64,000 nt of DNA from a virus (IMGVR_UViG_3300037454_001182:1-64000); one strand, 5' to 3'; shown: positions 34,690 to 62,285, counted from the first letter of the stretch. Numbers and translations: made by a program. Notes: a model not told the origin generated them from the sequence alone.

Positions 34690-35175
34690 TTATAATTTAT
34701 AGAAGTCAATACCCTTTGCCAACAGTTGGCTCTTCAATTCGTCAAACTGGTGCTTATCTATACTGGTGAACAACAGACCCTCTTTTGTCTGGCCGTGAAA
34801 CTTCACATAGGATGGGAAATTCAACTGATTCACGGTCACTGCGTCCTGTTGGTAGAATACGAAATCATGGTCACGCTCAAACATCACCAAAGCCTCTGGA
34901 TGGGCTTGCTTGCTCTTGCAATACTCCCTCAGAATCCTCTCACGTTCTGCAACTCCGGCCATCGTACTGAAGAAAGCACTGACGAACATTCTCTTTACTT
35001 CTGCCTCATTTGCTTCTGGGTAGTCAGTCTTGACAATCAACTGACAATTACCTGCATAGTTTGACCAACTTATTTCAAAGTTATAGTAGGTGGCACCCTC
35101 CATAACTCGTTTGATGCTCTTGCAATCTTGCTCACAGAGATTGCCTAACTCGTTTCCCAAATAGACTTCAATCAT
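34690..35175 (-). CDS. Hypothetical protein with a degenerate MutS domain I-like C-terminus
   Basis: KQAHPEALVMFERDHDFVFYQQDA resembles MutS_I; AAGAGCA-ATG start. Confidence 0.5.
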   Translation of the reverse strand: MIEVYLGNELGNLCEQDCKSIKRVMEGATYYNFEISWSNYAGNCQLIVKTDYPEANEAEVKRMFVSAFFSTMAGVAERERILREYCKSKQAHPEALVMFERDHDFVFYQQDAVTVNQLNFPSYVKFHGQTKEGLLFTSIDKHQFDELKSQLLAKGIDFYKL

Positions 35176-35226
35176 TGCTCTTGATATTAGCGGAGGTGAG
35201 CGGTGAGGCCCACCTCCAGATGAATA

Positions 35227-35949
35227 CTATGCCATAATCTCGATGTCGATACTCTCAACCCTTGCAATCTGGGTGGCTCCCTCGCGGTCAAAGAGATACT
35301 TCTGGAATGCGTCTTTGATTCTCATCACGCTCACACAGCAATACTCTTCACCAACAGGGAAACCATCATGTGAGAGGTCGAAGTTACCAGGCTTCCTGTA
35401 CGACTTGATGCCGTTGGCGTTTGCGGTGGCTCTGGCATCGTTCCAACGCTCATAACCATCACCGTCATTCTTGACGAACATTCTGGTGTTGCGGATGGTA
35501 TGGAAATCACTCTCTTGCTTGAAGTACTCCCGAATCACACAGAACTTGTTGATGATGGAGTGTTCGCTGTCAATGAGCGACTGGATGTGTTCGCGGCTGA
35601 TGTGTCCAGTCTCAGCGGTCACATCAAAAGTGTACGGCTCTTCGGTGGCAGGTTCAGTCTCAGCCTCATCATTGGTAGGCTCTGGCTCATCAACAGGCTC
35701 ATTCTCTGGTTCTGGCTCGATGGCCTCTGGCTCGTTCACTGGTTCCAGATTCTCTTCCGGCTCGATGGCTACCGTGGCATTGGCCTTGGTGCGGTAGTAT
35801 GAGATAAGGGCGGTGAGGCTTCTCTTGCCCTTAACCTCTTCGTACTCCTTGAAGAGTTCAGCGTTAGCACTCAGAGCGGCCTCAAAGGTCATGCTCTCAA
35901 AGTTCACCTTAATCTGGTTCTTAATCTCGTTTACATCTAACTGTTTCAT
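35227..35949 (-). CDS. Hypothetical protein with an acidic EP-rich linker
   Basis: 240 aa; AAGAGCA-ATG start; own promoter. Confidence 0.65.
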   Translation of the reverse strand: MKQLDVNEIKNQIKVNFESMTFEAALSANAELFKEYEEVKGKRSLTALISYYRTKANATVAIEPEENLEPVNEPEAIEPEPENEPVDEPEPTNDEAETEPATEEPYTFDVTAETGHISREHIQSLIDSEHSIINKFCVIREYFKQESDFHTIRNTRMFVKNDGDGYERWNDARATANANGIKSYRKPGNFDLSHDGFPVGEEYCCVSVMRIKDAFQKYLFDREGATQIARVESIDIEIMA

Positions 35950-35990
35950 TGCTCTTAAATTTTAATTGTGAATAATGTTTTTTGTTTAAT

Positions 35991-36072
35991 TTCTATACTG
36001 CAAAGATAGCGTATTTTTCTGAATTATCAAAACGGAAACTCGTTTATTTTCAGCGACTTAACTCTGTTTAAC
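35991..36072 (-). promoter_or_regulatory. Early-type repeated promoter P1
   Basis: -7 TATCTTTG at 36001-36008, -33 TTTG, variant upstream box at 36058-36072. Confidence 0.75.
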
Positions 36073-36309
36073 GTCTTGGCGTTCTCTATATGAGCCTTTC
36101 TTTGTCTCGGCCTTGATTTCGCCATAACTCGCATTACTCTCCCAGACTTTCTCACCATCGTTTATCTCGGTGACGAAATATCCAGTATCACCCAGGAACC
36201 CGACTATTTTCAAAGTCCAGTAGTAGTGACCATGGGAATAAACATCGTAACTCTTGCCGATATAGGACTGCATGATGTTTCTCATTCTTGTGCTGATACC
36301 CTTTTTCAT
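36058..36309 (-). CDS. Hypothetical protein
   Basis: 83 aa; AAGAGCA-ATG start. Confidence 0.6.
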   Translation of the reverse strand: MKKGISTRMRNIMQSYIGKSYDVYSHGHYYWTLKIVGFLGDTGYFVTEINDGEKVWESNASYGEIKAETKKGSYRERQDVKQS

Positions 36310-36329
36310 TGCTCTTACTTGTTTGATGG

Positions 36330-36638
36330 TTACAACTCGATTTCCTCAAATCCGAAACTGTCACAGTAGTAGAACTTATCTTCCAGTTTGATGATGTCAG
36401 AGACGGAAAGGCTGTGACCCTTGAATCCCTCTGGCTTTCTACCGATATTGAACTGATGGAAGATTTGCTCCAGTGTAACATACACATCGTTGGCCTCTTC
36501 AATCTCACCCTCCCATACCTTTTCGTACAGGTCTTTGGTAATCTTCAATCCCAGATGCTCGACCATTTCAAGACTGGAAAACATGATGTAGCGAGAATTT
36601 TCTGCATCGTCTCTTACTTGTAAAATCTGATATTTCAT
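36330..36638 (-). CDS. YodL-like domain protein
   Basis: LEQIFHQFN...GFKGHSLSVSDII...YYCDSFGF. Confidence 0.75.
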   Translation of the reverse strand: MKYQILQVRDDAENSRYIMFSSLEMVEHLGLKITKDLYEKVWEGEIEEANDVYVTLEQIFHQFNIGRKPEGFKGHSLSVSDIIKLEDKFYYCDSFGFEEIEL

Positions 36639-36673
36639 TGCTCTTTTTATTTAATTGGTTATCTTTTATTATT

Positions 36674-36730
36674 GTACTACAAAGATAGCGTTTTTTTCTG
36701 AAAGTACAAAACGAAAAACCAATTATTTTC
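36674..36730 (-). promoter_or_regulatory. Early-type repeated promoter P2
   Basis: -7 TATCTTTG at 36680-36687 and -33 TTTG. Confidence 0.7.
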
Positions 36731-36771
36731 AGCCAGTTATGCCTCAACCAACCATTTTTAACGTATCAAGA

Positions 36772-37028: not shown

Positions 37029-38750
37029 TTATTTTGGATAACCAATATATTCTTTCATGTATTTTACTTGTTTCCTGTTCTCGAAGTCTAAAAAGCCCTG
37101 CCAGTGTTCACCTTTCAGCAACTTTTCACCATACGGCATATTAGCCAACAGGTTCATCGGGAACGATTCAGAACCTCTGCCATTGACAAGCGACATGGCT
37201 TCCTCGTATTCCTCTCTGGTGATTCTTGCAGAACTGACAGCCCTTTGGAGTAGATTCTTCACCTCGGATTGAGTGGCACAGAATCCATACTTTGCCCACG
37301 CATAGCCACCGACATCAGCATTAGCCTTTACGTTCACTCTGGCAACCCTCATATCGCCATACTCTGCGAACAGATTGCGGAATATCTCTTTTGAGATACC
37401 TTTGCCCTGCAACTCTTTAGGCAGAAAGAATCTGGAGTGATTCACCTCAACGCCTCTGTCTGTATGTCTGAAATCACGCACCACCTCAACACGACCGCCA
37501 CCCTCAACAACACCGTTATAGGTCATGGCAGCATTGCCATTCTTGAATATGGTAACAGACTTGTCTTTCCAGTAGATGTCTGCGCTATCACCTATCACGG
37601 TCATAGCCTCATCGAATCTGGGTAGGTTGTACCCTCTCAGTGCGGAACCATTGTAGGCTTTAGCGGTGAACCTGCCAAAGTTTGGCAACTGGCCAATATC
37701 ATCTTCTGTAATCTGCCAGTCGGACGGTTTGAGCGCACGATCAATCTGTCTGATATTATCTCGTACCCAATATGGGGACGTACCACGGCTTTGTGCTGTT
37801 TCAATCTTGGTCTGGTTGTCTCGCACATAGTCTTTGAATGATTCTGGCAGTTCCGTTACCTGTTGCTCTTCTGCGGTGGTCTCACCCTCGCGCATCTTCC
37901 AGTAATCATCCTCACTCATTATGATGGGAACAACATAACACAAATCATTGGGGTGCCATCCAGTCCAGACAAAATCTTTCGGGTACTTACCTGCAAGCAT
38001 ATCACATATATCTGGCTTCGGATGGGAGCCGGACAACTTGACCTCATATCCAGTGATGAAGTCAAACTGCTGCCACCTCGTTTGCTCGGCACTACGATAG
38101 GCCATATTGATTTCAGAACGAGCCAGACGGAGTGACCTATACTCACAGTCGGCACAATCGACAGCATGGCCGTACTTCTCTTCATAGTCAGCCTTTAGGG
38201 TGTCAAAGTCATTCAGATACTTACTCAAACGCTTGCTCAGAGTGACAGCACTCATACCCTTTTCAATGGCTGACGATATGGCATACTCCATTTCTTGGAC
38301 GTAGTTCTCTGACTGGTTCCAGATTTTGGCCGACAGGTTCATACCATGCTCAGTGCGGTTCTGGAATGCTCGGAGCGCATCACTATTCGATTGGAAGTAC
38401 ACCCTTTGCTGCTGACCGTCTATCTGTGCATCGTAATACTTCAAGACTTTCTTTGCCAACAAATCTTGCATTATATTACTCTGCTTCCACTCTGCCGATG
38501 TGCCGGAATAGATGAGGCCGCGCATCTGGCCGAAAAACTCAGACTTCAAATCCTCGACCATCTGAGCCACGTCTGGATAGTCAGCAAAGAGGAACGCTGC
38601 CGAACCATCATAGGCCGTAGCCTCAACGATTCTGGCAGTCTGGAGGCACAACTCATCATAAATGCTTTGAACCCTCGCCATGTATTGAGATAAACGAGAG
38701 TTCAAAGCATTGTACGCTTTCTTCTGGTTGGGTGTCTTTGGCTTTCCCAT
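37029..38750 (-). CDS. Head morphogenesis protein (SPP1 gp7/MuF-like) with a C-terminal GNAT-like extension
   Basis: LRLARSEINMAY and WTGWHPNDLC MuF motifs; C-terminal LQGKGIS...VGGYAWAKYGF. Confidence 0.75.
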   Translation of the reverse strand: MGKPKTPNQKKAYNALNSRLSQYMARVQSIYDELCLQTARIVEATAYDGSAAFLFADYPDVAQMVEDLKSEFFGQMRGLIYSGTSAEWKQSNIMQDLLAKKVLKYYDAQIDGQQQRVYFQSNSDALRAFQNRTEHGMNLSAKIWNQSENYVQEMEYAISSAIEKGMSAVTLSKRLSKYLNDFDTLKADYEEKYGHAVDCADCEYRSLRLARSEINMAYRSAEQTRWQQFDFITGYEVKLSGSHPKPDICDMLAGKYPKDFVWTGWHPNDLCYVVPIIMSEDDYWKMREGETTAEEQQVTELPESFKDYVRDNQTKIETAQSRGTSPYWVRDNIRQIDRALKPSDWQITEDDIGQLPNFGRFTAKAYNGSALRGYNLPRFDEAMTVIGDSADIYWKDKSVTIFKNGNAAMTYNGVVEGGGRVEVVRDFRHTDRGVEVNHSRFFLPKELQGKGISKEIFRNLFAEYGDMRVARVNVKANADVGGYAWAKYGFCATQSEVKNLLQRAVSSARITREEYEEAMSLVNGRGSESFPMNLLANMPYGEKLLKGEHWQGFLDFENRKQVKYMKEYIGYPK

Positions 38751-40301: not shown

Positions 40302-41765
40302 TTACATTACTACTTGATTGCTCATTGCAAAGGCATCGGCCTTGGTCTGTGCCGTGGCCTTTTCCTCTTTCTGAATCTGCTCTAACGTCTGCTGTGCGTT
40401 GTCGCTCATGCCGTAACGCTCGATGGATTCCAGTTGGCTTTCGATGGGCTTGCCACCGTTGGCCACCTTACGCTTGTTAATCTCTGCCAGTTCGTCATTC
40501 TGGATGAAAGGCGATATGATATGCTCACAGGTGATTGCGTCAATGTCTGCGGCCCACTTGTTATTCATGCACTTCAAGAATGCCTTGATAACATTGAACT
40601 CACGCTCCAGAAACTCTATCCAGATTCCAGACATTTCACCAATCTTCAAGTGCGCATCTGTGAGCATCGTCTGACGGGCATCAAAGCCGATGTTGCCCAG
40701 ACCTTTCATGTTCTCGAAAGATATGTCTGGTATCTGCGCTTGCATCCAGTAGAGTTTGAGCATGGTGTCAACATGGTACTTCAAAGCCTCGATAGCCTGC
40801 TGCCATGCGACATATCCCACATCACCGCCATTCTCGACGCGGAAGATTCTACGGCTTTCGCCCTTATCCTCTTTGCCTTTCATGCCGCCAATGATTTTGA
40901 GGATGGGGGCAGAGTTGTAGGCTATGACGTTGGAGTTTCTGGAAAGTGTGTACTCTATCTCTTTGCGTAGTCCAGTCAGTCCATGATAGACAGGCTTCGG
41001 CAACCATGCGTAAGCACCGGGAATCTTCACAATCTGGATTTCATCACCGTGGACTTCCTCACCCTCATCTGAGGTTCTGGCCGTAACCTCTTCCCAGTCA
41101 CCACCTGTCAACTCTTGCCTCCAGATATAGTGACGGTCGGCTGTGTACGTCTCAAAGTAGGTGATACTCTTATCCTTGATTTTCTTGGTGTACTCAAATG
41201 ACATCGACAACATATCATCCATTTCGTCAATGATGGGGTACAACTTTGTGCCGTTCATTGGCGAGTACGTCTTACATTTGAGTTTCCATTTGGAATCAAA
41301 GCCATACAGGGTGTTAGGCTTCTTTACCGCATACCAGATAGTGAACACTTCACAGGCTGCATACAAATCAAGTCCACGCTTCAAGTTCTCAGAATCAATG
41401 CGGACGTTTTTGTAGATAGCCTCTAAAGCCTTAACGATGGCCTGTCTGGTCTCATTGGGCGAACCATCATCATTCGTGGTGTTGGAATAAACACGCTTGA
41501 CAGGCAGGGCAAAAGTGAACTCTGCCATACGCTTTGCCAACAGTTTTTCCAGTCCGATGCTGATACGTGCTGAAGGTTCTGTTGTACCGTCCGACCGCGT
41601 TTTGTCTTTGAGCGTAGTTGTGTCAGTACAAATCTCATGCTTGGTCGGCTCATAATCTTCAACCAGTTTTTCCCAATCGGGAACTGGAACGGATTTCTCT
41701 TTGAGGTCAGCGATAATTTCACTGGCCTTTCGAGTAAAGTCAATGATGGATGATATATCGGCCAT
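40302..41765 (-). CDS. Portal protein (SPP1 gp6-like)
   Basis: 487 aa; IYKNVRIDSEN, GNIGFDARQTMLTDAHLK; position between terminase and MuF. Confidence 0.85.
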   Translation of the reverse strand: MADISSIIDFTRKASEIIADLKEKSVPVPDWEKLVEDYEPTKHEICTDTTTLKDKTRSDGTTEPSARISIGLEKLLAKRMAEFTFALPVKRVYSNTTNDDGSPNETRQAIVKALEAIYKNVRIDSENLKRGLDLYAACEVFTIWYAVKKPNTLYGFDSKWKLKCKTYSPMNGTKLYPIIDEMDDMLSMSFEYTKKIKDKSITYFETYTADRHYIWRQELTGGDWEEVTARTSDEGEEVHGDEIQIVKIPGAYAWLPKPVYHGLTGLRKEIEYTLSRNSNVIAYNSAPILKIIGGMKGKEDKGESRRIFRVENGGDVGYVAWQQAIEALKYHVDTMLKLYWMQAQIPDISFENMKGLGNIGFDARQTMLTDAHLKIGEMSGIWIEFLEREFNVIKAFLKCMNNKWAADIDAITCEHIISPFIQNDELAEINKRKVANGGKPIESQLESIERYGMSDNAQQTLEQIQKEEKATAQTKADAFAMSNQVVM

Positions 41766-41792
41766 TTTTCAAAAAAGTTGTAATTACGACCG

Positions 41793-41824
41793 CAAAGGTA
41801 CACAATTTATTTGAATAACAAATA
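41793..41824 (-). promoter_or_regulatory. Late-type promoter of the portal block with 17-bp operator
   Basis: TACCTTTG at 41793-41800; TATTTGAATAACAAATA at 41808-41824. Confidence 0.75.
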
Positions 41825-41845
41825 AAATTAACTATAAAAATCAAT

Positions 41846-41900: not shown

Positions 41901-42095
41901 TTATGCCCTCTGGAACTCTCTATGTCGCGCTAATTGGCTACGATAGCCCTCCATGCAACGCTTCATGTAACTTGTGGCTGCATACCTCGTTGGATTGGTC
42001 ATGTACGGCTCTGTCTTATACAGGTTGATTTCCCTGCGACACGTCCACATCTGCTGAATGAGCCATACTTCTGTTTGCGTCTTTTGTCGTTTCAT
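41901..42095 (-). CDS. Hypothetical protein (start revised to 42095)
   Basis: AAGAGCA-ATG lies at an in-frame internal Met of track ORF 41901..42143. Confidence 0.55.
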   Translation of the reverse strand: MKRQKTQTEVWLIQQMWTCRREINLYKTEPYMTNPTRYAATSYMKRCMEGYRSQLARHREFQRA

Positions 42096-42161
42096 TGCTC
42101 TTCGATTTAGATGTATCAAGATAGCCGATAATACGACCATCATAGAAAGAACGAATAGGTC

Positions 42162-42803
42162 TCATGCCCATAACTTCACGGCTGTATCGTAATTCTTCTG
42201 GGCTTCATTAACGGCTTTCTTGGCATAGGTCAGAGAGTAGGCATGTTCGCGCTCAATCTTACCCTCTTTCATGGCTTGATGGTATGCCTTGGCCTTTTCC
42301 AGAATCTCAGCGTAATACTGTATGCTCTCTGGCATTGACAGGTTGATGTCCTCAGTGTGACGTTCCCAACCCTCGGCCTTGTCACGGTAGGCTTCTGCCT
42401 TATCCATTTCAGCGGCCATCTTTCCAGTGTTGCGCCATGCGTCCTCAATGGCTTTGCGGTGTCTGCGCTCAGAATGATGTCCGACTTTGATAGGCTCTCC
42501 CAGAGAGAGGAAAGCTGCATCTTTGTTGGACTTGTCGAAATACTCACCTGCGCGTCTGTCTGCATTGGCGGCTGCTTGCTCGTACTTCTCGACTTTCCGT
42601 TTGGCTCTCTCCTGGCAGTTGTAGCCATCAGCCCGAACGATGGAGTAGTAGAAAAATCCACCACGTTCTGCCACGAGGTTGTAAACGATGTGTTCATTCT
42701 CTTTGCCGTACTTTGTAGTTACGGTGATGATTTCGCCTCTTTCGTGCCTCTCTTCGCATTTTGCTACAAATACGTTGGGGCAATACTTTTGATACGTGTT
42801 CAT
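42162..42803 (-). CDS. DUF3560 domain protein
   Basis: GEPIKVGHHSERRHRKAIE. Confidence 0.75.
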   Translation of the reverse strand: MNTYQKYCPNVFVAKCEERHERGEIITVTTKYGKENEHIVYNLVAERGGFFYYSIVRADGYNCQERAKRKVEKYEQAAANADRRAGEYFDKSNKDAAFLSLGEPIKVGHHSERRHRKAIEDAWRNTGKMAAEMDKAEAYRDKAEGWERHTEDINLSMPESIQYYAEILEKAKAYHQAMKEGKIEREHAYSLTYAKKAVNEAQKNYDTAVKLWA

Positions 42804-42826
42804 TGCTCTTACTTTTTATAGGGTTA

Positions 42827-43129
42827 CTACTTAATTGTCACTTTCACTGGTTGAACGTCCTCGATGATGTCATTTACCCATGTGATAGCCTTGATAGGCT
42901 CCAATGTCTCGCGGTAGTTCTCAGTATCATACTTGAACTCGATTTCATACAGGGTGCCCGGCTCTCCCTCAAAGAGTATCGACCAGTAGCCATCACTCCA
43001 ACACTCATTGCTGATTTCGTAGGCTTGATTCTTCTGGCTGTTGCTCAACTCGTTCAGACAGTCATTGATAATCGCTGTTCTCTTAACGGTCTCACCGTTA
43101 CTCTGGAACTGAATCTTAATCGTTTTCAT
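42827..43129 (-). CDS. Hypothetical acidic protein (start revised to 43129)
   Basis: AAGAGCA-ATG at an in-frame Met; promoter P3 lies inside the longer track ORF. Confidence 0.6.
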   Translation of the reverse strand: MKTIKIQFQSNGETVKRTAIINDCLNELSNSQKNQAYEISNECWSDGYWSILFEGEPGTLYEIEFKYDTENYRETLEPIKAITWVNDIIEDVQPVKVTIK

Positions 43130-43149
43130 TGCTCTTATTCTTAATTGAT

Positions 43150-43231
43150 TTCTATACTGCAAAGATAACCATTTTTTCTGAATTATCAAAACCGATTGAA
43201 CTCTATTTTTAACCGACCAACTCTTTTTAAC
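43150..43231 (-). promoter_or_regulatory. Early-type repeated promoter P3
   Basis: -7 box at 43160-43167; upstream box CCAACTCTTTTTAAC at 43217-43231. Confidence 0.75.
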
Positions 43232-44103: not shown

Positions 44104-44457
44104 TCATGCCTCCCCATATAAGCGGTTAATGAACTTTTCCAGATAGCACTCATCTTTCATTTCAGACAATGGCTTCGGATTGTGGCAGATGTCTCTCTCA
44201 ACACCGCAACCCCAACTATTCTTCAAGTTCTGGAGTTCGGTAAGGCTGAAATACCCATACTCACATTCTCCATACCCATTGACTACGATTCCAAAAGCCA
44301 GATTCTCTTTTAGGTCGGCTTCCAACACATACCAGGTATGCGCCCCACCAGTGAGGAAATACTTAACTACGCAAATGGCATTTTGCTTTTTGTCGCTCTG
44401 GGAGTACAGCGGAAATTTCGCTAACTCCTTTTCTACTTGTTTCGTGACTAATTTCAT
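44104..44457 (-). CDS. DUF2958-like protein
   Basis: KYFLTGGAHTWYVLE...EYGYFSLTEL...VERD. Confidence 0.7.
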   Translation of the reverse strand: MKLVTKQVEKELAKFPLYSQSDKKQNAICVVKYFLTGGAHTWYVLEADLKENLAFGIVVNGYGECEYGYFSLTELQNLKNSWGCGVERDICHNPKPLSEMKDECYLEKFINRLYGEA

Positions 44458-44479
44458 TGCTCTTACTGCTATGTGGTTA

Positions 44480-44764
44480 TTACTTTACTTCCAACTCATC
44501 CAGAGAGATTTCTTCAAAACTTCCTGGCCAGTTGTAGATGGGCGTTGTGTCAAATGCTCCATACTCTACTATCTCTAACTCATCGCCCTGTATCTCCCAG
44601 ATGTCACCATTCTCATTACCATCACTATCCTCATACATGATGGCAATGTTAGTGAAATTGGCAGTCTCTTCAACATAGAGACCTGTGAACTCTAAACCAT
44701 TTTCTTTGAGGTTGGCAATCAGTTCCTCGACCTTTGCTTTCAGTTGTGCTGTAATTGATTTCAT
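44480..44764 (-). CDS. Acidic hypothetical protein
   Basis: 94 aa; AAGAGCA-ATG start. Confidence 0.6.
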   Translation of the reverse strand: MKSITAQLKAKVEELIANLKENGLEFTGLYVEETANFTNIAIMYEDSDGNENGDIWEIQGDELEIVEYGAFDTTPIYNWPGSFEEISLDELEVK

Positions 44765-44800
44765 TGCTCTTGAATTTTGAAAGTTATTATCTTTATTATT

Positions 44801-44878
44801 GTACTACAAAGATAGCGTTTTTTTCTGAATTATCAAAACGAATGAACCTTTATTTTCAACTGACCAACTCTTTTTAAC
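44801..44878 (-). promoter_or_regulatory. Early-type repeated promoter P4
   Basis: -7 box at 44807-44814; upstream box at 44864-44878. Confidence 0.75.
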
Positions 44879-45557: not shown

Positions 45558-46076
45558 CTAAAACGATGGGTCAATGTAATGTCTGCGGAAACCGACTGTC
45601 AGTGTCACACTACCGAACTTCTTAGGTTGGCCCTCTTCAACCCATTTGCCATTCTTGCGCAAGGTGAACGTGTGCTTTCCCATATACTCGGCAATGGAAT
45701 CCAGAACCTTGTAACGGCCACCGTAGTAGTCTAAACATTCAGTCTCATTTTCCTGTACTATGATTTTCTTTGGACTTACAACCTCTACGATGGTCATAGC
45801 CCTGTGGTCACTCCAGAGGTTCATTGTGGCACCGAGGCCGACTTTCAATTCTGGATTGGATTCAGCAAACACCTCGGCTGCAACCTCCGGCCAATCTTCA
45901 CGCTTCCATCTGGTCAGAAACTCATTCATAAAGTAGTCGAAGTCATAGCCATTCAACTTGCACACATCGGCATCATGGCGCATTTCTTCCAACTGGCTTT
46001 CTGTCAGTTCAATGGTGTAGGCTTTGCCATCCCACATCTTTGTTTTGGTCTTTACAACCGTTTCTTTTGTTTCCAT
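45558..46076 (-). CDS. Hypothetical protein
   Basis: 172 aa; AAGAGCA-ATG start. Confidence 0.6.
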   Translation of the reverse strand: METKETVVKTKTKMWDGKAYTIELTESQLEEMRHDADVCKLNGYDFDYFMNEFLTRWKREDWPEVAAEVFAESNPELKVGLGATMNLWSDHRAMTIVEVVSPKKIIVQENETECLDYYGGRYKVLDSIAEYMGKHTFTLRKNGKWVEEGQPKKFGSVTLTVGFRRHYIDPSF

Positions 46077-46087
46077 TGCTCTTTGAT

Positions 46088-46423: not shown

Positions 46424-46690
46424 TTAGAGTGAATCAATATATAAGTTCTTAACCTCTCCACTGGCAATCATTGAGGCAACTTTCTCATTGATTGCGTCCA
46501 GTCCGATGATGTCCTGGCTGTCATGCTGCTCAACCTTGATAAGATGAAACTGCCTGTCTGATTTCAGCAACTCAATCACGCATTCACCGTTGACGGTCTC
46601 AATGACTATCTGCTGCTTCCAAGGGTCATACTGGTAAGCCATCTTATCGTACTTCTTTTGAAGTGACTTTGTTTCTTTTGTCTGTCTCAT
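46424..46690 (-). CDS. Hypothetical protein
   Basis: 88 aa; AAGAGCA-ATG start; first gene after P5. Confidence 0.6.
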   Translation of the reverse strand: MRQTKETKSLQKKYDKMAYQYDPWKQQIVIETVNGECVIELLKSDRQFHLIKVEQHDSQDIIGLDAINEKVASMIASGEVKNLYIDSL

Positions 46691-46707
46691 TGCTCTTATA
46701 GTTTGAA

Positions 46708-46790
46708 TTTCTATACTGCAAAGATAGCGATTTTTTCTGAATTATCAAAACGGAAAACTCTTTATTTTCGCCTTGCCAACTCTTTTTAAC
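46708..46790 (-). promoter_or_regulatory. Early-type repeated promoter P5
   Basis: -7 box at 46719-46726; upstream box at 46776-46790. Confidence 0.75.
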
Positions 46791-46794: not shown

Positions 46795-46866
46795 AAAAAA
46801 GGTGTGTCCTAACTTCACAGTCGAGACACACTAAGAGCAATGAAATCGTCAAAAGAAACGATTTCG
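46795..46866 (-). ncRNA. Candidate antisense sRNA (sRNA-1), about 70 nt
   Basis: -7 TAATTTTG at 46871-46878; 8-bp hairpin 46842-46865; single-stranded AUUGCUCUUA; terminator hairpin 46802-46831 with a GUGA loop and U6. Confidence 0.65.
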
Positions 46867-46908
46867 GCTGCAAAATTACAAAATAATATTCAAACCATCT
46901 AATTTTTG

Positions 46909-49558: not shown

Positions 49559-50095
49559 CTATTGAAAGAAATCATCAAAGAGGCCCAACTGTCGCGGCTT
49601 CAACGCCTCGAACTCTTCTCTGAAGAACTGGTCTTTGGTGCGCCCCATCATCTTACCCTTGCGAGTGTGAACATCGTAGGTGTATTCTGGAATGGGAATC
49701 GGGTACCGTCTGGCATCTTCGAGCCATGCGTCCACATTCTCCAGTCGGTTCTGGTCATAGACAAGATTCTGCAAGTGGTCTGCATCACGGCTTTTGCGAC
49801 ACTCACACAGGAGCAGAACGGCCTTACTGACGAACACCCTGCCTTTCGGCACAGGTTGTTTCTTGTTTACTAACTCATGGCCCTGCCATAACGCCTCAAT
49901 CTCTTGGGTGATGAGGCCGTAGCAGTCTTCCGCGCTTATCGTGTATAGTCTCTTCCAGACATAATCACGGTAGCCTGAATGCCATAATTCCAGGGCGAAA
50001 TACCCTGCTGTTCGTGCGTCTGCTCTACGAATGGCCTTTTGCATGGCTGATGATACTTCGTAGAAATCGTAACCTTTAACTGTTCTTAATTCCAT
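49559..50095 (-). CDS. MgsA/RarA C-terminal-like protein without the AAA domain
   Basis: SAMQKAIRRAD...WKRLYTISAEDC; AAGAGCA-ATG start. Confidence 0.7.
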   Translation of the reverse strand: MELRTVKGYDFYEVSSAMQKAIRRADARTAGYFALELWHSGYRDYVWKRLYTISAEDCYGLITQEIEALWQGHELVNKKQPVPKGRVFVSKAVLLLCECRKSRDADHLQNLVYDQNRLENVDAWLEDARRYPIPIPEYTYDVHTRKGKMMGRTKDQFFREEFEALKPRQLGLFDDFFQ

Positions 50096-50190
50096 TGCTC
50101 TTACTTTTGGTTTTGTTATTCTTGTTTTCTAACAGTAAAGTTAGTCATTTTTAGCGAGATATGCAAATTTTCAAACTTCTTTTTCATCGT

Positions 50191-51660: not shown

Positions 51661-51694
51661 AATTTGCCAATTTTAGCGTGATAGTGTACTCTTT

Positions 51695-51913
51695 TCACAT
51701 GTCAAAGAGGTCTAATTGCACCGCCTTTGGCTTCGGTGGGTGGTTACAGGCGATGCAACCGTTATGCTCATTGCACCACTCATAGCGGATGAAGTAGGGG
51801 CATCGGTTGTGACCGCCACCAGAGTAACAGACATCATTCTGGAGGTCTCTCTCACCAAAAGGACACTTAACCTGTTCCTTTGGGATGAATGCGTTTGGTA
51901 CATAGGTAATCAT
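51695..51913 (-). CDS. Small Cys-rich protein
   Basis: 72 aa, several Cys. Confidence 0.5.
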   Translation of the reverse strand: MITYVPNAFIPKEQVKCPFGERDLQNDVCYSGGGHNRCPYFIRYEWCNEHNGCIACNHPPKPKAVQLDLFDM

Positions 51914-51916
51914 AAC

Positions 51917-52174
51917 TCAAAAACTAAATGACAGTTGTATTGGTTGTGAATGATGGGTGGCTTTCGTTCTCGCATAGATGGAACACTCATTCCTGTATGC
52001 ACATCTTCCGGCCTTGGCCTCAGAGAAACGCAACGCCCACAAATCTTGTCTGTCAAGCGTTAGTTGCTCCTTGCTCTCATTCATAATGAAGCCTACAAGT
52101 TTCATGCAGAAAAACCCTTTGTCGGTTGACTTTTCATCTACCAGTTCTATAAGTCCGTTCCCTACTGGTCTCAT
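51917..52174 (-). CDS. Hypothetical protein
   Basis: 85 aa, overlaps the methylase stop. Confidence 0.5.
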   Translation of the reverse strand: MRPVGNGLIELVDEKSTDKGFFCMKLVGFIMNESKEQLTLDRQDLWALRFSEAKAGRCAYRNECSIYARTKATHHSQPIQLSFSF

Positions 52175-53826
52175 ACGGCTACCCTCCTTTCTATCTCATC
52201 CAGACGGTCACAGAGGGCTTCGCACAACACCCTCGCCATGCCGACCTCTACCGCATTGCCAATGAACTTCTTTTGCTCTGATTGACTGCCTACCAGGACG
52301 TAATCAGTAGGGAACCCCATAATGCGTTTCAACTCGGACACCTTCAGCATCCTCATCTTAATGTCGATAATACTATACATCGCCATGAACTCCTTAATCT
52401 TCTGGGTCATTGGGCTGTCAGTCTCATACACCTCTATGCCTACTCCCTCTTTGGTGCTGATAAGGTACGGCGGCATCTTATCCATACGAGCAATCAGAGT
52501 GAAGCAAGGGTCATTGACCGAGCCACCTTTGCTTGCAAACTGCGGATTCATCAAGTAGTGCCATTTGGCCGTAGTCTGTTCTGCGGTCACTAACTGGTAC
52601 TTCGGATTCGTGGTCGCTGTTGGTGCCGGACTTTCAATAGATGAGGGTGTGCCATTGCCGTACTGCATATCCAGAAAGCAAGCCTTGACTTTCTCGAAGC
52701 GGTCTTTGGTGGTGACGGTTGGCGATGGTTTTTCCAGAGAGGAATTGAAGCCATTACCATAGTGAGCCGTTAGGAACTCCGCTTCAACGAGTGCGTGATG
52801 GTCAATACAGGTCAATGTTCCTGCAGGCCCATCCACGCTGATATTCTTGTCTGACGGATTGCCAGAGAATTGCTTTGACAGGAAGTGTACCTGTGCAACA
52901 CCGAGGCGGTTCTGACAGGCAACAGTCGGACACGGCTCATCAATGGATGGTGCAGAATAGCCACCACTTCGATTCATGGAGTTGTATTTCACGATGAAAG
53001 CCGCAAAGTCTCTCTGGCTCATTCCGGCCACAAACTTAATCAAACCTGCATAGATTCTTTCGAGGGTCTTTTCAACCAGTGGCTTCTTTCTGTCAAAGAT
53101 GGATTCGCCCTCATCTGAGAAATCCAGAACGTCACGAACAGGCTTCCATTTCTTCATTTCTCCAAACATTCCACCTGTATCACCATCCTTGGAATGGGTG
53201 GCTACCGGGAATGTGATGGGGAGGCCAGTCTTGGCGAATTGACCAAAGAACCGCTTTCTGGAAGTATAGGCTCCGTAGTCGGCAGCGTTCAGAATACGCC
53301 AGTAGTAATCATAGCCATAACTCTTCACGTTCTGAATCCATTTGAGATAACAGCGGCCTTTATCCTTGCTGATGGGGTGGCCGTGTTCGTCCATATCGCC
53401 CCAACTCATGAACTCTTCCACATTCTCAATCTGGATATAGTCTGGATTCAGAGCCTCAATATAACGGAACAGGTGTTCAGCCAACGTGCGGCTGTCTGCG
53501 TCTCTGGGCATACCACCTTTGGCCTTACTGAAGTTCGTACATTCCAGTGAAGCCCACAATACAACGTAGGCATCTGGGTACTTCGCTTTCATCTTCTTTA
53601 GATGGGCAACCATTGGCGTTAGTTCCAACGTCCTAATATCCTCAGTGTAATGTACTGCCTCTGGATGGTTGGCAGCATGAGAGGCAATAGCGTTTGCATC
53701 GTGATTGACACAGGCTATTACCTTGGCACATTTCTTGCCGTTGTGGGTCGCTTTCTCCACGCCAGTAGATGTGCCACCTGCACCACAAAACAGGTCAATG
53801 TATAACAATCTAATATCTTCCATCAT
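52171..53826 (-). CDS. dcm: DNA (cytosine-5)-methyltransferase
   Basis: IDLFCGAGG (motif I), SLECTNFS (IV), IENVEEF (VI), SRKRFF (VIII), KFIGNAV (X). Confidence 0.9.
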   Translation of the reverse strand: MMEDIRLLYIDLFCGAGGTSTGVEKATHNGKKCAKVIACVNHDANAIASHAANHPEAVHYTEDIRTLELTPMVAHLKKMKAKYPDAYVVLWASLECTNFSKAKGGMPRDADSRTLAEHLFRYIEALNPDYIQIENVEEFMSWGDMDEHGHPISKDKGRCYLKWIQNVKSYGYDYYWRILNAADYGAYTSRKRFFGQFAKTGLPITFPVATHSKDGDTGGMFGEMKKWKPVRDVLDFSDEGESIFDRKKPLVEKTLERIYAGLIKFVAGMSQRDFAAFIVKYNSMNRSGGYSAPSIDEPCPTVACQNRLGVAQVHFLSKQFSGNPSDKNISVDGPAGTLTCIDHHALVEAEFLTAHYGNGFNSSLEKPSPTVTTKDRFEKVKACFLDMQYGNGTPSSIESPAPTATTNPKYQLVTAEQTTAKWHYLMNPQFASKGGSVNDPCFTLIARMDKMPPYLISTKEGVGIEVYETDSPMTQKIKEFMAMYSIIDIKMRMLKVSELKRIMGFPTDYVLVGSQSEQKKFIGNAVEVGMARVLCEALCDRLDEIERRVAV

Positions 53827-54659: not shown

Positions 54660-55079
54660 TCACAAACTATTTATCAGTTGGTCGATTCTCTCTTTAACAT
54701 AAGGCAGCTTCCAGTACCCATCTTCACCGAATATCTGAGCCTCGGAAAACTCATGGGTGTCTGGTTTGTATTCCAGACCGATGAAGCCACCATCTGGGAA
54801 ACGAATATCAATGCGAGGATTCTCAAAGCGCACTCGCAACTCTATCTTTGGCCGCGGCTTGCTTTCATCCACATCATCCTCAAAGATAGGGTATGAGTAG
54901 CGGACACTCTCAAAGGTTGGTACTTCGTTGGTTCTGAGGTATCTCTTGGCTGCACAGAACGATGTACCCCAAAACTTGTCTTTGGTCAAATCCTCTGTGC
55001 GATGGTCTGTCTCGATATAGCCGAACTTCTGGGCTATCTCTTCTGCGACCTTTAATAATGCTTGATTGACGATTTTCAT
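54660..55079 (-). CDS. Hypothetical protein
   Basis: 139 aa; AAGAGCA-ATG start. Confidence 0.6.
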   Translation of the reverse strand: MKIVNQALLKVAEEIAQKFGYIETDHRTEDLTKDKFWGTSFCAAKRYLRTNEVPTFESVRYSYPIFEDDVDESKPRPKIELRVRFENPRIDIRFPDGGFIGLEYKPDTHEFSEAQIFGEDGYWKLPYVKERIDQLINSL

Positions 55080-55092
55080 TGCTCTTTTGTAT

Positions 55093-55329: not shown

Positions 55330-55661
55330 ATCTCACGCTCTTCTATCATTTCCAACAACTCATTGATTCCAGCCTCATCAAACTCATCTAACAGATGCTC
55401 TTCGGATGGGTCATTGGGATTCCAACGGTTGGACGTGATGTTTACTTTGCTCTTTTCTGGCTCCAACAAATCAAAGGTGATGGATTCCACAAAAGGCTGA
55501 TACTCTTCGGCCTCATCAACCAGTTCTGGATGAACAAAGGCGATGCCGTGGGTGTTCTCTGGATAGAACCACATACTGATGGAGCGAGAGAACCACACTC
55601 CAGTAGAACTACCGTATCTCTGTACGGCTTTCTTGAATCGTTCTTTTTGCTCTTGTTTCAT
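55326..55661 (-). CDS. Hypothetical protein (start revised to 55661)
   Basis: AAGAGCA-ATG at an in-frame Met. Confidence 0.6.
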   Translation of the reverse strand: MKQEQKERFKKAVQRYGSSTGVWFSRSISMWFYPENTHGIAFVHPELVDEAEEYQPFVESITFDLLEPEKSKVNITSNRWNPNDPSEEHLLDEFDEAGINELLEMIEEREI

Positions 55662-55709
55662 TGCTCTTTGGTATTTGGTGGGGTGGTGGTTAGCCACCCC
55701 GTGACCTTG

Positions 55710-56120
55710 TTATGCTGCTTTCAGATACTTGCGGATTTCCCAGAGCATCGTACTCATGCGCTTGTAGAGGTAGTAGTTAGCACGGCTATTGTACTCTTTC
55801 AGTTTCAGCCCGGCTTCCTCAATGGTCTGTTCCTCTCTCTGGGTGAGTGCGGTGTGAACCAGTGTACGCTCTTTCCAGTCGAAGTCTTTCCAACCGTACT
55901 TCTCGATGATGTGCCAAAGTTTCTCGCGCATCTTCTCTTGCTTCTCTCTGGCCTTGGCTTGTTCTTTGGCTTCCTTTACCCTGGAATGATTCATCTTGAC
56001 CCAGAGAGCGCAAAACTCATCTTTGCAAAGGTCGCTGTTCATGTAAACAACTTCGATGTGAGAATACTCTTCTGGGGTAACTCTCATTCCTACTCTCGTT
56101 TCAAATTCTGACTGTATCAT
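55710..56120 (-). CDS. Hypothetical protein
   Basis: 136 aa; AAGAGCA-ATG start; first gene after P6. Confidence 0.65.
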   Translation of the reverse strand: MIQSEFETRVGMRVTPEEYSHIEVVYMNSDLCKDEFCALWVKMNHSRVKEAKEQAKAREKQEKMREKLWHIIEKYGWKDFDWKERTLVHTALTQREEQTIEEAGLKLKEYNSRANYYLYKRMSTMLWEIRKYLKAA

Positions 56121-56155
56121 TGCTCTTTGATTTTAATTGTTATTATTTCATCTTT

Positions 56156-56234
56156 TGTACTACAAAGATAGCGTTTTTTTCTGAAATATCAAAACCGAAT
56201 AGCAATTATTTTCAGCCGACCAACTCTTTTTAAC
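56156..56234 (-). promoter_or_regulatory. Early-type repeated promoter P6
   Basis: -7 box at 56163-56170; upstream box at 56220-56234. Confidence 0.75.
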
Positions 56235-57216: not shown

Positions 57217-57666
57217 TTACTCAAACCTCCTTTCCAGTTTCTCTTTGATTTGTCGGCATACCTCACCATTATGGCACTTCTTACCGTCAATACGAGGTTG
57301 TAGCATCTGCAACAGTATTCCTACTTCCTCATTGGTAAACCTGACTTCCGGCCTACGTCTGTCTATCTGGCGTTCCAGAGTATCAACGGCAAACCGCAAC
57401 CCTTTTAGGAATGTCTCTAACTCGCTGTCACCTCCTAACGTGATAGTGACTTCCCCAACTTTATTGCCATTATCCAACGGCTCGAAGTCTAACCGCATTT
57501 CTGTTTGTGACAGGTCTTTGATACGGAAGTACGTTCTGGAACCCTTAGTGAAATCACCGCCTTGGTAGCCATTGGTGCCTACTTCCACCTCAATGAGGTT
57601 GGCACTCTCAAACTCTTCTACCAGTGTGGGGATGGTATGACCATCTACAACAGCATTACTCTTCAT
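57217..57666 (-). CDS. Hypothetical protein, paralog of 63107..63739
   Basis: Shared IEVEVGTxGYxGGD..G.RTYF.I and GGD.E.ETF motifs. Confidence 0.65.
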   Translation of the reverse strand: MKSNAVVDGHTIPTLVEEFESANLIEVEVGTNGYQGGDFTKGSRTYFRIKDLSQTEMRLDFEPLDNGNKVGEVTITLGGDSELETFLKGLRFAVDTLERQIDRRRPEVRFTNEEVGILLQMLQPRIDGKKCHNGEVCRQIKEKLERRFE

Positions 57667-58036
57667 TGTTCTCTACTATTTGATAATTTACGTTCTTTGG
57701 TCTGGAATCAATCTTGGCCATTCTCTCTACGAAGATTCTATGGAAAGCCATAGAGCGAGTTTCTGCCCTGTGCTTGGCATCGTATCTGTTGTGACACGCC
57801 TGGCACAATGCGCGTAGATTCTCTGGGTCGCAATTCTCTGGCGTATGGTCGAGGTGGGCAATAGTCAGCACCACCTTAACCATCTTACCTGTTTTCTCAT
57901 TCCAAAAGTAGGTGTGATTCTGCTTGCCGCAAAACTCACAGCGATTGTGCGCCCTCTCCAATATGGATTCGCGTATCTGCTTCCAGTTGGCAGGGTAACG
58001 CTTCTTATTCTCTGGTTTGATAGGCATATCACTCAA
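57656..58036 (-). CDS. HNH endonuclease-like protein
   Basis: CEFC...TIAHLDH...NLRALCQACHN. Confidence 0.8.
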   Translation of the reverse strand: MSDMPIKPENKKRYPANWKQIRESILERAHNRCEFCGKQNHTYFWNEKTGKMVKVVLTIAHLDHTPENCDPENLRALCQACHNRYDAKHRAETRSMAFHRIFVERMAKIDSRPKNVNYQIVENNEE

Positions 58037-60337: not shown

Positions 60338-60922
60338 CTACTCGCAGAAAATGAAGTCCATATATTCAGCAAGGAACTGTTGGCCCGCGTACTCCGCTAA
60401 CGCTCTATTTTTGAAGCAGAGGCGACCGCCGCCGTACGTGCTCGAGAACGACGAAGCGTTACTCGTGAGCGACAAAGCGACACCCGCATTCGCACTCGCG
60501 CTGTTGTACGAGCGACCGAGAACGCGGATTCCCTTTTTGTCCTCTTCATCCATACCGTCCAGTTCCTCCTGTGTGTAGAACACGAACCAAGGGAAATAGC
60601 GGTATTCATCCTCAGTAAAATTCGGCTTCCATCCCTCATTGAGAGCTTCAACAATAGTCTTTAGTTTGATGTAGGCCACCTCATCCTTTTCGAGAAAACA
60701 ACGGCTGTTGTCAATCGGTGAAGAATAGCGCAGGTCGTGGAAGTTTACAGGCTGAATACCGAGGACTTTGCAAGCATCCTCATACGTCTTTACCCTCTCT
60801 GTGATAGGCAGCAGGGAATCCAGACCATCAACCTGTACGTCATGCTTACGCATGAGTTCCATCATTTCTTTTGCAAACACTTGTGCCTTATCATCTGGCA
60901 CGATCAGTTTTAACTCTTTCAT
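60338..60922 (-). CDS. Small early-region protein, DGR target 2
   Basis: 194 aa; contains VR2 (RVLGRSYNSASANAGVALSLTSNASSFSSTYGGGRLC) near the C-terminus. Confidence 0.85.
   Translation of the reverse strand: MKELKLIVPDDKAQVFAKEMMELMRKHDVQVDGLDSLLPITERVKTYEDACKVLGIQPVNFHDLRYSSPIDNSRCFLEKDEVAYIKLKTIVEALNEGWKPNFTEDEYRYFPWFVFYTQEELDGMDEEDKKGIRVLGRSYNSASANAGVALSLTSNASSFSSTYGGGRLCFKNRALAEYAGQQFLAEYMDFIFCE
60416..60527 (-). repeat. DGR variable region VR2
   Basis: 16 mismatches to TR over 112 nt, 15 of them at TR adenines. Confidence 0.92.
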
Positions 60923-60969
60923 TGCTCTATGAGTATTTAATATACGCAGGGCGGTTACTCCTGCAAATC

Positions 60970-61221
60970 CTATAAATCAATATCAAAGCCCATATCAGAC
61001 AGGGCAAGGATAACGGCTACTGGCAATTCATAGATACCATCGTAATCTATCACAGTGTTGCCATCAGTGACATAGTTTCCACAAACGTAGGTATCATCGT
61101 CATTGTCTTTCTCCCATTCCCAACTGTGGGAACTCGGAGTGATTGCTACCCACACATCATCATCATCAAAATAGAAGTGATGGATGCCGTCATTATCAAC
61201 GTTTCTTCTGGTGATATTCAT
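60970..61221 (-). CDS. Acidic hypothetical protein
   Basis: 83 aa; AAGAGCA-ATG start. Confidence 0.6.
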   Translation of the reverse strand: MNITRRNVDNDGIHHFYFDDDDVWVAITPSSHSWEWEKDNDDDTYVCGNYVTDGNTVIDYDGIYELPVAVILALSDMGFDIDL

Positions 61222-61233
61222 TGCTCTTATATT

Positions 61234-61467
61234 TTATAGTTCTACTGGTATGGATTTGCCTGTTAACCTTTCAAGTGCGACTAAGACATTCCATCCCAAA
61301 TTTGTCTGTATTTGCTGCATCTTTTCGTGATGCTCCATTGCCTTATTACGGTAGGTTTCACTCTCTTGCCTTTTGGCAAAGTAGTAGTTGAAACTCTTAA
61401 CGTGGTCGATGTATTCATCAAGAACTTCTTGATTTACATTTACTGTCACAATTACTGGAAAACTCAT
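61234..61467 (-). CDS. Hypothetical protein
   Basis: 77 aa; AAGAGCA-ATG start. Confidence 0.6.
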   Translation of the reverse strand: MSFPVIVTVNVNQEVLDEYIDHVKSFNYYFAKRQESETYRNKAMEHHEKMQQIQTNLGWNVLVALERLTGKSIPVEL

Positions 61468-61479
61468 TGCTCTTTGGTT

Positions 61480-61863
61480 TTATTGGTTTACTTTCTCGAA
61501 TGATATTTGGCCATCCTCTTGCGCTCGATTCAAGATACCCAGTACGTAGTTGTTCACGTTCTCTTCATCACCGACCTCTCTTGCAGTTCTGAGGAACAGC
61601 GTTTCGTTCATGTAACGCTCTCTCATCTTACCCTGCCAGTCTGTGAAGATTCCAGTGATACGGATTCTGGTAACTTTCTTCTGCATAAGGCTCTTGGCTC
61701 TTGTCTTTACCCATGCAAGGCTGTAAGACGTATAGACATTGGTAGGGGATTTCATGGAACCGCTACCGTGCATCTTTGAATAATCCCACAGGTTGTAGAA
61801 CTGTCTGCCTGTGCTGTCTTTTTCCTCAGTATAGGAAAAGCGGTCATTGATTTTGTGCTCCAT
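61480..61863 (-). CDS. Hypothetical protein
   Basis: 127 aa. Confidence 0.55.
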   Translation of the reverse strand: MEHKINDRFSYTEEKDSTGRQFYNLWDYSKMHGSGSMKSPTNVYTSYSLAWVKTRAKSLMQKKVTRIRITGIFTDWQGKMRERYMNETLFLRTAREVGDEENVNNYVLGILNRAQEDGQISFEKVNQ

Positions 61864-61875
61864 AACTCAAACCGT

Positions 61876-62268
61876 TTATTGTTCATTCATTCTTGCTTGC
61901 CCATACTCTCTACTCCATTGCTTTGTGACTTTCTCGCGGTCAATTCCAGTGAGTGCCTGGCTGAAACGCTCAGTGATGAAAGCACCGTAAAGAATGGTAT
62001 TCTTATTCAACTTCATGCCGTTAGGGCAAAGACCGTTGGCATATCTACCATATTGCATATAGATGTTACGGTCAGCAGATGGAATGTAGTTTACTCTCTG
62101 ACCATCCTTTTTCATTGCCACTTCCCAATGGGAGCCGGTATAGGTCTTACTGCTCATCCAGTTATCTTGCGTATAACTGTCAGATTCAGATACGAGCCTT
62201 GCGACAATCTCATAATGTCCGCAATCGCTCTGCAAGTAGATGTACCTTGTTTTGATATTCGATTTCAT
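61876..62268 (-). CDS. Hypothetical protein
   Basis: 130 aa; AAGAGCA-ATG start; first gene after P7. Confidence 0.6.
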   Translation of the reverse strand: MKSNIKTRYIYLQSDCGHYEIVARLVSESDSYTQDNWMSSKTYTGSHWEVAMKKDGQRVNYIPSADRNIYMQYGRYANGLCPNGMKLNKNTILYGAFITERFSQALTGIDREKVTKQWSREYGQARMNEQ

Positions 62269-62285
62269 TGCTCTTATAGTTTGAA

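Follow-up and report, generated by a model that had tools for sequence, protein, structure and literature searches.

The c4 RNA of phages P1 and P7 is a small trans-acting phage RNA whose exposed segments pair at ribosome-binding regions and block translation; it controls one operon (icd/ant) via two sites, and small differences between related phages set its specificity. In phage T4, RegA is a translational repressor of early mRNAs and RegB is an endoribonuclease that cuts GGAG in early Shine-Dalgarno (SD) sites. The GibS-type small RNAs (sRNAs) of Bacteroides thetaiotaomicron reportedly combine a Bacteroidetes promoter, a 5' hairpin, a single-stranded seed and an intrinsic terminator, and they are said to pair with translation initiation regions without Hfq, being chromosomal, metabolic and directed at few imperfect targets. 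The c4 antisense RNA belongs to the immunity region of P1 and P7 (review PMC12197685). Cluster K mycobacteriophages carry Start-Associated Sequences (SAS), a 13-mer with an AGGAG core able to pair with 16S rRNA, which is found in one orientation 3-7 bp before the start codon of many genes, all of them non-structural. The host genome has no copy of it, and unrelated gene families carry it across subclusters; it often comes with further upstream repeats and has a single opposite-orientation copy in several phages (PMC3203893). Here, we analyzed IMGVR_UViG_3300037454_001182:1-64000, a 64,000-nucleotide stretch of viral DNA ("the window") that represents the first 64 kb of a single provirus record of 79,203 bp (CheckV completeness 100%), in which a fixed ten-base word, AAGAGCA-ATG ("the tag"), sits on the start codons of non-structural genes of a temperate Prevotella/Bacteroides-type phage. 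We consider it likely, from sequence comparisons, that an sRNA regulon of the phage, acting by translational repression, has this tag as its common target site.

Among the described systems, the c4 antisense RNA of P1/P7 is the nearest working analogue, since a phage-encoded small RNA is also predicted here to pair in trans with start regions of the phage's own mRNAs. However, c4 uses two sites in one operon, whereas here one seed matches 22 scattered genes, and we see no sequence or structure relationship between the two systems, which also differ in host phylum and in promoter type. SAS are the nearest pattern analogue, although the tag is not a member of that group: both are fixed short sequences at the starts of non-structural genes only, with rare reverse-orientation copies (a single one in several SAS phages, two here), but the tag abuts the start codon and comprises it, has no pairing with 16S rRNA and comes with a candidate RNA reader backed by covariation. 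We infer from this likeness that the tag system may offer a candidate answer to the puzzle of what reads SAS. One of the two phage RNAs described below, sRNA-2, has the same build as the GibS-type sRNAs, but it is phage-borne and its targets carry an identical tag; Rfam searches revealed no homology between the phage sRNAs and the GibS type. Like RegA and RegB, the proposed system would turn many early genes off together, post-transcriptionally and via a short start-region signal, but RegA and RegB are protein readers of degenerate or SD-based signals, whereas the evidence here points to an RNA reader. In the literature, we found no description of the motif or of the RNAs (a search with the motif word gave only unrelated primer sequences), and the Quimbyviridae paper mentions neither a motif, nor a promoter, nor a small RNA. 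A megablast search with a 24 kb query found no annotated close relatives in the phage record collection.

On the gene strand, the tag reads AAGAGCA-ATG, which corresponds to the pattern CATTGCTCTT in the window, where nearly all the genes are on the minus strand. We counted 21 exact matches to this pattern for 0.27 expected, and shuffled sequence never gave more than 2. The tag is also the commonest gene-strand 10-mer (23 copies, versus 7 for the next unrelated word), with no further conservation upstream of the ten bases and with AAA frequently found as the second codon. An earlier note on this DNA had listed 18 exact copies: all of them are present, and every one is on the start of a minus-strand open reading frame (ORF). 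Together with 4 further tagged starts located beyond the window, in the rest of the provirus (65491, 66306, 69922 and 74814), this brings the total to 22 tagged ORFs of 64-392 aa, with 19 of the 22 tagged at the first ATG of the ORF. The tagged ATG is 16 codons (42093), 20 codons (43127) or 12 codons (55659) downstream of the first possible start in three cases, which is consistent with the earlier claim that the tag corrects three start calls of a gene track, even if that track itself was unseen by us. The nine-out-of-ten copy reported at 60920 was confirmed, as TAGAGCA-ATG starts a 194-aa gene (60338-60922). Three of the 21 copies were absent from the earlier list. The one at 12698 is out of frame within a structural gene and looks like chance. 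Those at 34315 and 46833 are in the opposite orientation to the other copies; both are intergenic and correspond to the seeds of two predicted sRNAs.

Each of these two reverse-orientation copies is found in an intergenic unit in which a TAnnTTTG box, a hairpin and a terminator accompany the seed. The predicted sRNA-2 (46797..46870, minus strand, ~72 nt) is located directly after terL. A -7 box (TAATTTTG) precedes its 9-bp 5' hairpin; the seed CAUUGCUCUU (46833-46842), which stays mostly unpaired according to the fold prediction, comes next, and then the terminator hairpin, whose loop is GUGA, and a U run. The fold (-27.3 kcal/mol) has a z of -5.5 compared with shuffled sequence. The predicted sRNA-1 (34262..34372, minus strand, ~105 nt) would be the leader RNA of the head operon, with an anti-tag (34315-34324) split equally between a hairpin loop and its stem, and with a terminator hairpin after it. 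Rfam searches at E up to 1 gave no family, C4 included, that matches 46700-46920, while searches of the whole window at gathering score gave RT-3 and tRNA only; known RNA families were thus ruled out for the sRNA-1 and sRNA-2 regions.

Using relatives of terL as anchors (TerL relatives being prophages in Prevotella, Bacteroides, Parabacteroides and other Bacteroidales genomes), we found the sRNA-2 unit after terL in 77 of 80 IMG/VR relatives whose TerL proteins are 73-89% identical, and also in nearer prophages. Since the 5' hairpins differ in length, the sRNA-2 versions were compared by single-sequence folds and by a seed-plus-terminator alignment. A TAnnTTTG box is found 5-12 nt before the 5' hairpin in all the extracted versions, with a strong hairpin and a U run after it, and 21 distinct versions have one common fold made of the 5' hairpin, a mostly unpaired seed (mean unpaired probability of 0.44-0.99 in predicted folds) and the terminator. 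The seed core UCAUUGCUC is invariant in 24 aligned versions in which both hairpins differ, and double-sided compensatory changes are seen in 6 of the 8 pairs of the terminator. The 18 more distant TerL relatives in which our screen did not find the seed are also without tagged starts. Altogether, sRNA-2 is predicted to be an independent RNA gene with its own promoter and intrinsic terminator. In two other loci (L075 and L077, ~11515-11600), the slot after terL holds another short hairpin element with AUUGCUUGG replacing the seed, and only one canonical tag is present within 21 kb; the tag system may be degenerating or re-specified there.

The strongest evidence for a link between the tag and the sRNAs is that, in comparisons between lineages, the RNA and its predicted targets change together. 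All 22 tagged start regions are exactly complementary to the RNA over 10-21 nt, and their duplexes with the seeds reach -16.6 to -27.1 kcal/mol, compared to -18.0 kcal/mol for the one-mismatch gene and -14.5 kcal/mol for the best other untagged start. In the genome labeled G000, the start region of a helicase gene matches sRNA-2 over 21 contiguous nt and that of an AAA_24 ATPase gene over 16, and both matches reach into the 5' arm of the sRNA-2 terminator stem. These bases outside the tag differ between lineages, together with those of the RNA: sRNA-2 has AGUGUGU 3' of the seed in G000, L088 and L089, where the helicase and AAA_24 genes have ACACACU before the tag; it has AGUGCUU in L034, where both genes have AAGCACU; and it has GGUGCUU in L081, where both genes have AAGCACC. 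The contiguous complementarity of these two genes is then 16-21 nt with their own RNA, versus 10-18 nt across flank classes, even if ~5 kb separate the two genes from each other and, in G000, more than 20 kb separate them from the sRNA-2 gene. More broadly, when 104 unique tag contexts were considered, at least 4 extra pairs were found in 14.4% of them with their own sRNA, versus 0.1% with the sRNAs of other lineages. At position -12, G-C, G-U and A-U combinations were counted 45 times versus 4 times for the A-C mismatch (p = 0.003, ignoring kinship). Finally, the L098/L124 lineage has a seed (CAUUGCUUUU) with U where others have C, and A is found at -5 in 7/7 of its gene-strand tags, the canonical tag being absent. 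All these covariation tests concern a handful of lineages, with statistics that ignore kinship. Because the seed core is invariant, mostly unpaired, located between variable hairpins and covarying with the target starts, the sRNAs are the best candidates for the reader of the tag. The earlier note had proposed a regulon-defining RNA tag, and this idea holds up: the tag is phage-specific, shows RNA-target covariation and is neither an SD site nor a host preference. Among the candidate readers that it named, the two sRNAs are backed by this comparative evidence, while a RegA-like or RegB-like protein found no support.

In the model that we favor, sRNA-1 and sRNA-2, which both carry CAUUGCUCUU, would pair across the start codons of 22 non-structural mRNAs, with the one-mismatch gene as a probable 23rd target. 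The duplex would cover positions -7 to +3, often extending to -14 and +7, and would block the 30S subunit at the start codon, so that translation of the whole set would be repressed, possibly with mRNA decay. Repression of translation would be expected because the duplex occupies the landing site of the ribosome. Targets appear to fall in two tiers, with the AAA_24 ATPase and the helicase genes pairing over 16-21 nt and the other tagged genes over 10-14 nt. One or two RNAs would then probably switch the whole tagged gene set off together. The tag is real and specific to a phage family, and it is very probably functional; the transcription of the RNAs, repression as their effect and the timing are steps that we infer.

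Several points weigh against this model. The promoters, ends and abundance of the sRNAs are all predicted from sequence, a simple terminator scan missed the terminators of both sRNA-1 and sRNA-2 (their stems have internal loops), and half of the sRNA-1 seed lies in a stem. Ten base pairs make a short target, and the universal part of the seed-tag match is only an 8-9-nt core: in L097, L084, L086 and L091, the outer (last) seed bases mismatch the commonest tags. To our knowledge, Bacteroidales lack Hfq, and a search for another chaperone among RRM and ProQ proteins found none encoded by the phage. Lastly, the covariation comes from few lineages, with kinship ignored, and the direction of the effect (repression versus activation) is deduced solely from geometry.

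Which genes carry the tag is a further clue. None of the 27 genes of the head/tail block (1.2-34.4 kb) is tagged, just as claimed before for tail and head genes, compared to 22 of the 76 genes at 34.4-75.7 kb (Fisher p = 0.0007). Within this second region, the tag is found in 22/46 genes that are separated from the upstream stop by 5 nt or more, versus 0/30 closely coupled genes, and about half of the independently initiated non-structural genes are without it. Tagged genes of a recognizable family encode the AAA_24 ATPase, a DEAD/SNF2-type helicase, a Dam-class methylase, DUF6633, DUF3560 and DUF2958 proteins; the others are small, with no recognizable family. Untagged genes of the same region include those for the portal, a MuF-like protein, terL, a C5 methylase, a TET-associated glycosyltransferase and an epimerase. 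The tagged set is thus a set of non-structural and accessory genes, and its gene content and position suggest that these are early genes. The word "early" fits the AAA_24 and helicase genes, which both follow a divergent regulatory region at 75.7 kb, in an operon adjoining a putative immunity region. The previous claim that only early-type genes are tagged is borne out in part: the tagged set includes the AAA_24, helicase and Dam-type methylase genes, but most other tagged genes are small unknowns and about half of the independently initiated non-structural genes are left out. Also as claimed before, the major head (capsid) gene (31450-33033) and a 149-aa gene (57217-57666) have a variant start context, AGAGAACA-ATG. 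These two genes have a 17-nt context in common, GTAGAGAACA-ATG-AAGA (33024-33043 and 57657-57676), which fits the sRNA seeds poorly (-11.5 and -12.8 kcal/mol).

Most tagged genes other than AAA_24, helicase and the Dam-type methylase are in promoter-led mini-operons wedged amid the head, portal/MuF and terminase modules. The promoter cassette is ~110 nt long and is found in seven copies plus a weaker one, each leading to a tagged first gene; it consists of a conserved upstream box, TTTG, TAnnTTTG, a variable-length untranslated region and then the tag. All the cassettes and tags of the window listed here are on the minus strand. The reference copy of the cassette (46666..46790) leads to an 88-aa gene (tag at 46688..46697); the others, at 35948..36072, 36627..36751, 43107..43231, 44754..44878, 56110..56234 and 62244..62368, lead to genes of 240 aa (tag at 35947..35956), 102 aa (36636..36645), 100 aa (43127..43136), 94 aa (44762..44771), 136 aa (56118..56127) and 130 aa (62266..62275), respectively. 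The last one is 87% identical to the 46.7-kb copy, with similarity that stops at the ATG. Two copies have an identical 50-nt upstream context down to the ATG and lead different genes. Tagged genes without their own cassette are inside operons, a few to ~100 nt after the upstream stop. Tags without a cassette listed at their gene are at 35173..35182 (161-aa gene 34690-35175, with a weak MutS_I-like match), 36307..36316 (83 aa), 42093..42102 (ORF-internal ATG, product of 64 aa), 42801..42810 (DUF3560 gene 42162-42803), 44455..44464 (DUF2958 gene 44104-44457), 46074..46083 (172 aa), 50093..50102 (178-aa gene, phrog_16866, at the head of the gene run ending in terL), 55077..55086 (139 aa), 55659..55668 (111 aa, at the first ATG, with an earlier GTG), 61219..61228 (83 aa) and 61465..61474 (77 aa). 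The one-mismatch tag (60920..60929) belongs to the 194-aa gene mentioned above (phrog_11581), earlier labeled as target 2 of a diversity-generating retroelement (DGR). G+C-rich hairpins are found ~10 nt upstream of several within-operon tags (35183-35215; 55669-55700), as is a GAAA-loop hairpin ahead of the DUF3560 tag in relatives; such hairpins may be processing barriers or attenuators.

The tag is not a general start signal of the host. It was counted in four bacterial genomes with related prophages, and in three of them, with a non-prophage remainder of 2-3 Mb, the copies are concentrated in the prophage: G004 has 25 copies, with 20 of them within its 42-kb prophage and 5 in the other 1.86 Mb; G002 has 26 (14 in the prophage and 12 elsewhere); and G001 has 26 (11 and 15), for 4-7 copies of reversed-word controls in these three genomes. 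In G003, the 24 copies are scattered and below the reversed-word control (32). Only one of six inspected host copies is on a real gene start. A generic host start context was ruled out by these whole-genome counts and by the inspection of host copies, and the tag is not equally common at host starts, being rare outside the related prophages in G001, G002 and G004. In non-prophage DNA of Prevotella vespertina (L198:7861-8851), a gene for a GFO/IDH/MocA-family oxidoreductase begins with the exact tag, and a Bacteroidetes -7 box immediately precedes it; prophage sRNAs could have this host gene as a target, or the match could be chance.

Pairing with 16S rRNA was also ruled out: no complement of the tag of at least 6 nt is found anywhere in host 16S rRNA, and the tag forms a duplex of only -3.5 kcal/mol with the 16S 3' tail of Prevotella vespertina, versus -15.0 kcal/mol for a canonical SD, while the tag-seed duplex reaches -12.5 kcal/mol, or -18.4 kcal/mol with flanks. 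With no such complement and with the tag abutting the ATG, the earlier statement that it is not an SD site was correct. Ribosomes of the host phylum are reported to ignore SD sites. Extended canonical SD-like sequences (AAAGGAGG) are nevertheless present at normal spacing at four minus-strand starts (58404, 58193, 52174 and 39041), followed by T in 3 of the 4, with weaker cases at 60326 and 31107; SD-like pentamers are near background overall (6/105 starts). The start preference of Bacteroidetes is a degenerate enrichment of A at -3, -6, -12 and -13 (PMC6847099). With A at -6 and flanks rich in A at -11 to -14, the tag may satisfy this Kozak-like rule in part, but its base at -3 is G, and the rule does not account for it.

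These data bear on an alternative in which the tag would mainly be a self-sufficient translation-start module, a standardized unstructured leader read without SD pairing and spread by selection or copying among genes that need independent initiation, with the antisense RNAs being secondary or incidental. The restriction of the tag to genes with a gap after the upstream stop (0/30 closely coupled non-structural genes) would fit such a module, tagged starts are slightly more open than untagged ones (0.56 versus 0.51), and both the A at -6 of the tag and the abundance of A at -11 to -14 count among the positive determinants in Bacteroidetes (PMC6847099). We nevertheless regard this alternative as unlikely: a generic preference would be degenerate, while the tag is a fixed 10-mer that has G, not the favored A, at -3, and it is essentially absent from host gene starts; none of 13 independently initiated head/tail genes is tagged, including the presumably highly expressed major head gene; and the conserved antisense seeds and the lineage-tracking target flanks would be left unexplained.

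Comparisons of the regions upstream of the tag speak about its anchoring and its history. Between the -7 box and the tag, the length of the spacer differs by more than 20 nt among the cassettes, but in every case the tag abuts the ATG. The position of the tag is thus set by the ATG rather than by the transcript start, which rules out a signal anchored to the promoter or to the transcription start. The DUF3560 gene was compared in 66 orthologous loci with 62-85% protein identity and 28 distinct upstream contexts: the exact ten bases are kept in 62/66 loci, and nucleotide similarity to the segments of 83 relatives begins 8 nt before the ATG. On such sequence comparisons, we conclude that selection maintains the tag.

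The mobile regulatory cassettes of T4-type phages are the model for a second alternative, in which the tag would chiefly be a DNA-level junction, a microhomology for shuffling promoter/gene cassettes that persists as a scar. That seven or eight copies of the ~110-nt cassette end at the tag, that two of them with the same context lead different genes, and that the similarity of the DUF3560 gene to its 83 relatives starts just before the ATG beneath 28 upstream contexts would all agree with this proposal. But there is no need for a scar to remain identical as the protein drifts to 62% identity, and one would not expect it at ATGs in the transcribed orientation alone (22 sense copies on starts versus 2 antisense ones); it also leaves the sRNA architecture and the covariation unexplained; moreover, module borders are expected anyway at a conserved functional site. 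We find it improbable that the tag is chiefly such a junction, and its fit to recombination borders may be a side effect of having a conserved word at module edges. The cassette-shuffling idea of the earlier note therefore fits the module borders at the tag, but it is unneeded for the data and leaves the antisense copies unexplained. Finally, it is very improbable that a phage or host protein, such as a T4 RegA-like repressor or a RegB-like endoribonuclease, binds or cuts the tag with the sRNAs as decoys or unrelated elements: the strict conservation of a short asymmetric start-codon sequence would suit a protein site and most small phage genes have no assigned function and could hide such a reader, but a search of the phage for the families S21, RRM and ProQ gave no RNA-binding protein, and a protein reader predicts neither G-U-tolerant covariation nor that bases outside the 10-mer in two distant genes track the stem of an RNA gene. 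A phage-encoded S21, RRM or ProQ protein acting as a reader or as a ribosome modifier was likewise rejected by this search.

Returning to the sRNA regulon, the placement of the anti-tag RNAs gives indications on when it would act. One of them is the leader of the head operon, while the other, with a predicted promoter of its own, ends the gene run terminated by terL. RNAs placed in this way suggest a feedback on the tagged set, driven either by late transcription or by a constitutive transcription of the leader in the lysogen; the outcome could be a late shut-off of early/accessory genes, a silencing in lysogens or upon superinfection, or both. A more tentative proposal, which we hold to be possible but rather doubtful, is that a whole family of temperate Bacteroidales phages uses the system as a layer of immunity based on RNA. 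The prophage would then make anti-tag RNAs constitutively, silencing the helicase, the AAA_24 ATPase and ~20 accessory genes of the resident phage and also of incoming relatives, because the family shares the 10-nt core. The lineage-specific 6-11 extra pairs on replication genes would define heteroimmunity groups, as c4 does in P1/P7. If this was true, the same logic might explain the SAS of mycobacteriophages, which also come with a lone opposite-orientation copy.

The rest of the window has an integrase gene at 1-1242 and a DGR reverse transcriptase gene at 3862-5217. An RT-3 RNA (Rfam RF03068, 77 bits) adjoins the latter at 5245-5399, the two together spanning 3.9-5.4 kb. The tape measure gene is at 22918-28518, a tRNA gene (29328-29399) is found within the tail/head block, and the major head protein described above belongs to phrog_29. 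The portal gene (40302-41765) and terL (46909-48420) follow; downstream of the portal gene, a 573-aa protein (37029-38750) has a sub-threshold GNAT match only (residues 439-498). A probable DNA-hypermodification cluster at 48781-53826 includes an NAD-dependent epimerase/dehydratase (48781-49551) directly upstream of terL, the TET-associated glycosyltransferase (50191-50952) and the C5 cytosine methylase (52171-53826); two more methylases, of the N4/N6 and Dam classes, are at 63.9-65.5 kb of the genome. A second promoter class, with a -7 box GTACCTTTGC and the near-palindrome TTATTTGTTATTCAAATAA ahead of it, is found at 34365-34420, 41784-41838 and 51608-51674, in front of the head-operon leader, of the portal/MuF module and of the glycosyltransferase-containing module. 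It is probably a late or middle promoter with an operator or activator site.

The timing of phage gene expression is usually ascribed to promoters, repressors and antiterminators. Since related prophages are present in isolates such as Prevotella vespertina A2879 and Prevotella sp. KH2C16, the model proposed here is directly testable. Sequence alone is enough for the tag to predict which start codons are true and which genes belong to the regulon, and the seed-tag pair could be a portable translational control part for Bacteroides engineering. It also provides a testable model for the start-associated repeats of other phages, whose reader has been a puzzle since 2011. Common gut and rumen Bacteroidales prophages seem to barcode their start codons, with one or two RNAs addressing all of them; if true, this would be a compact post-transcriptional switch in a phylum without SD-based initiation and Hfq.

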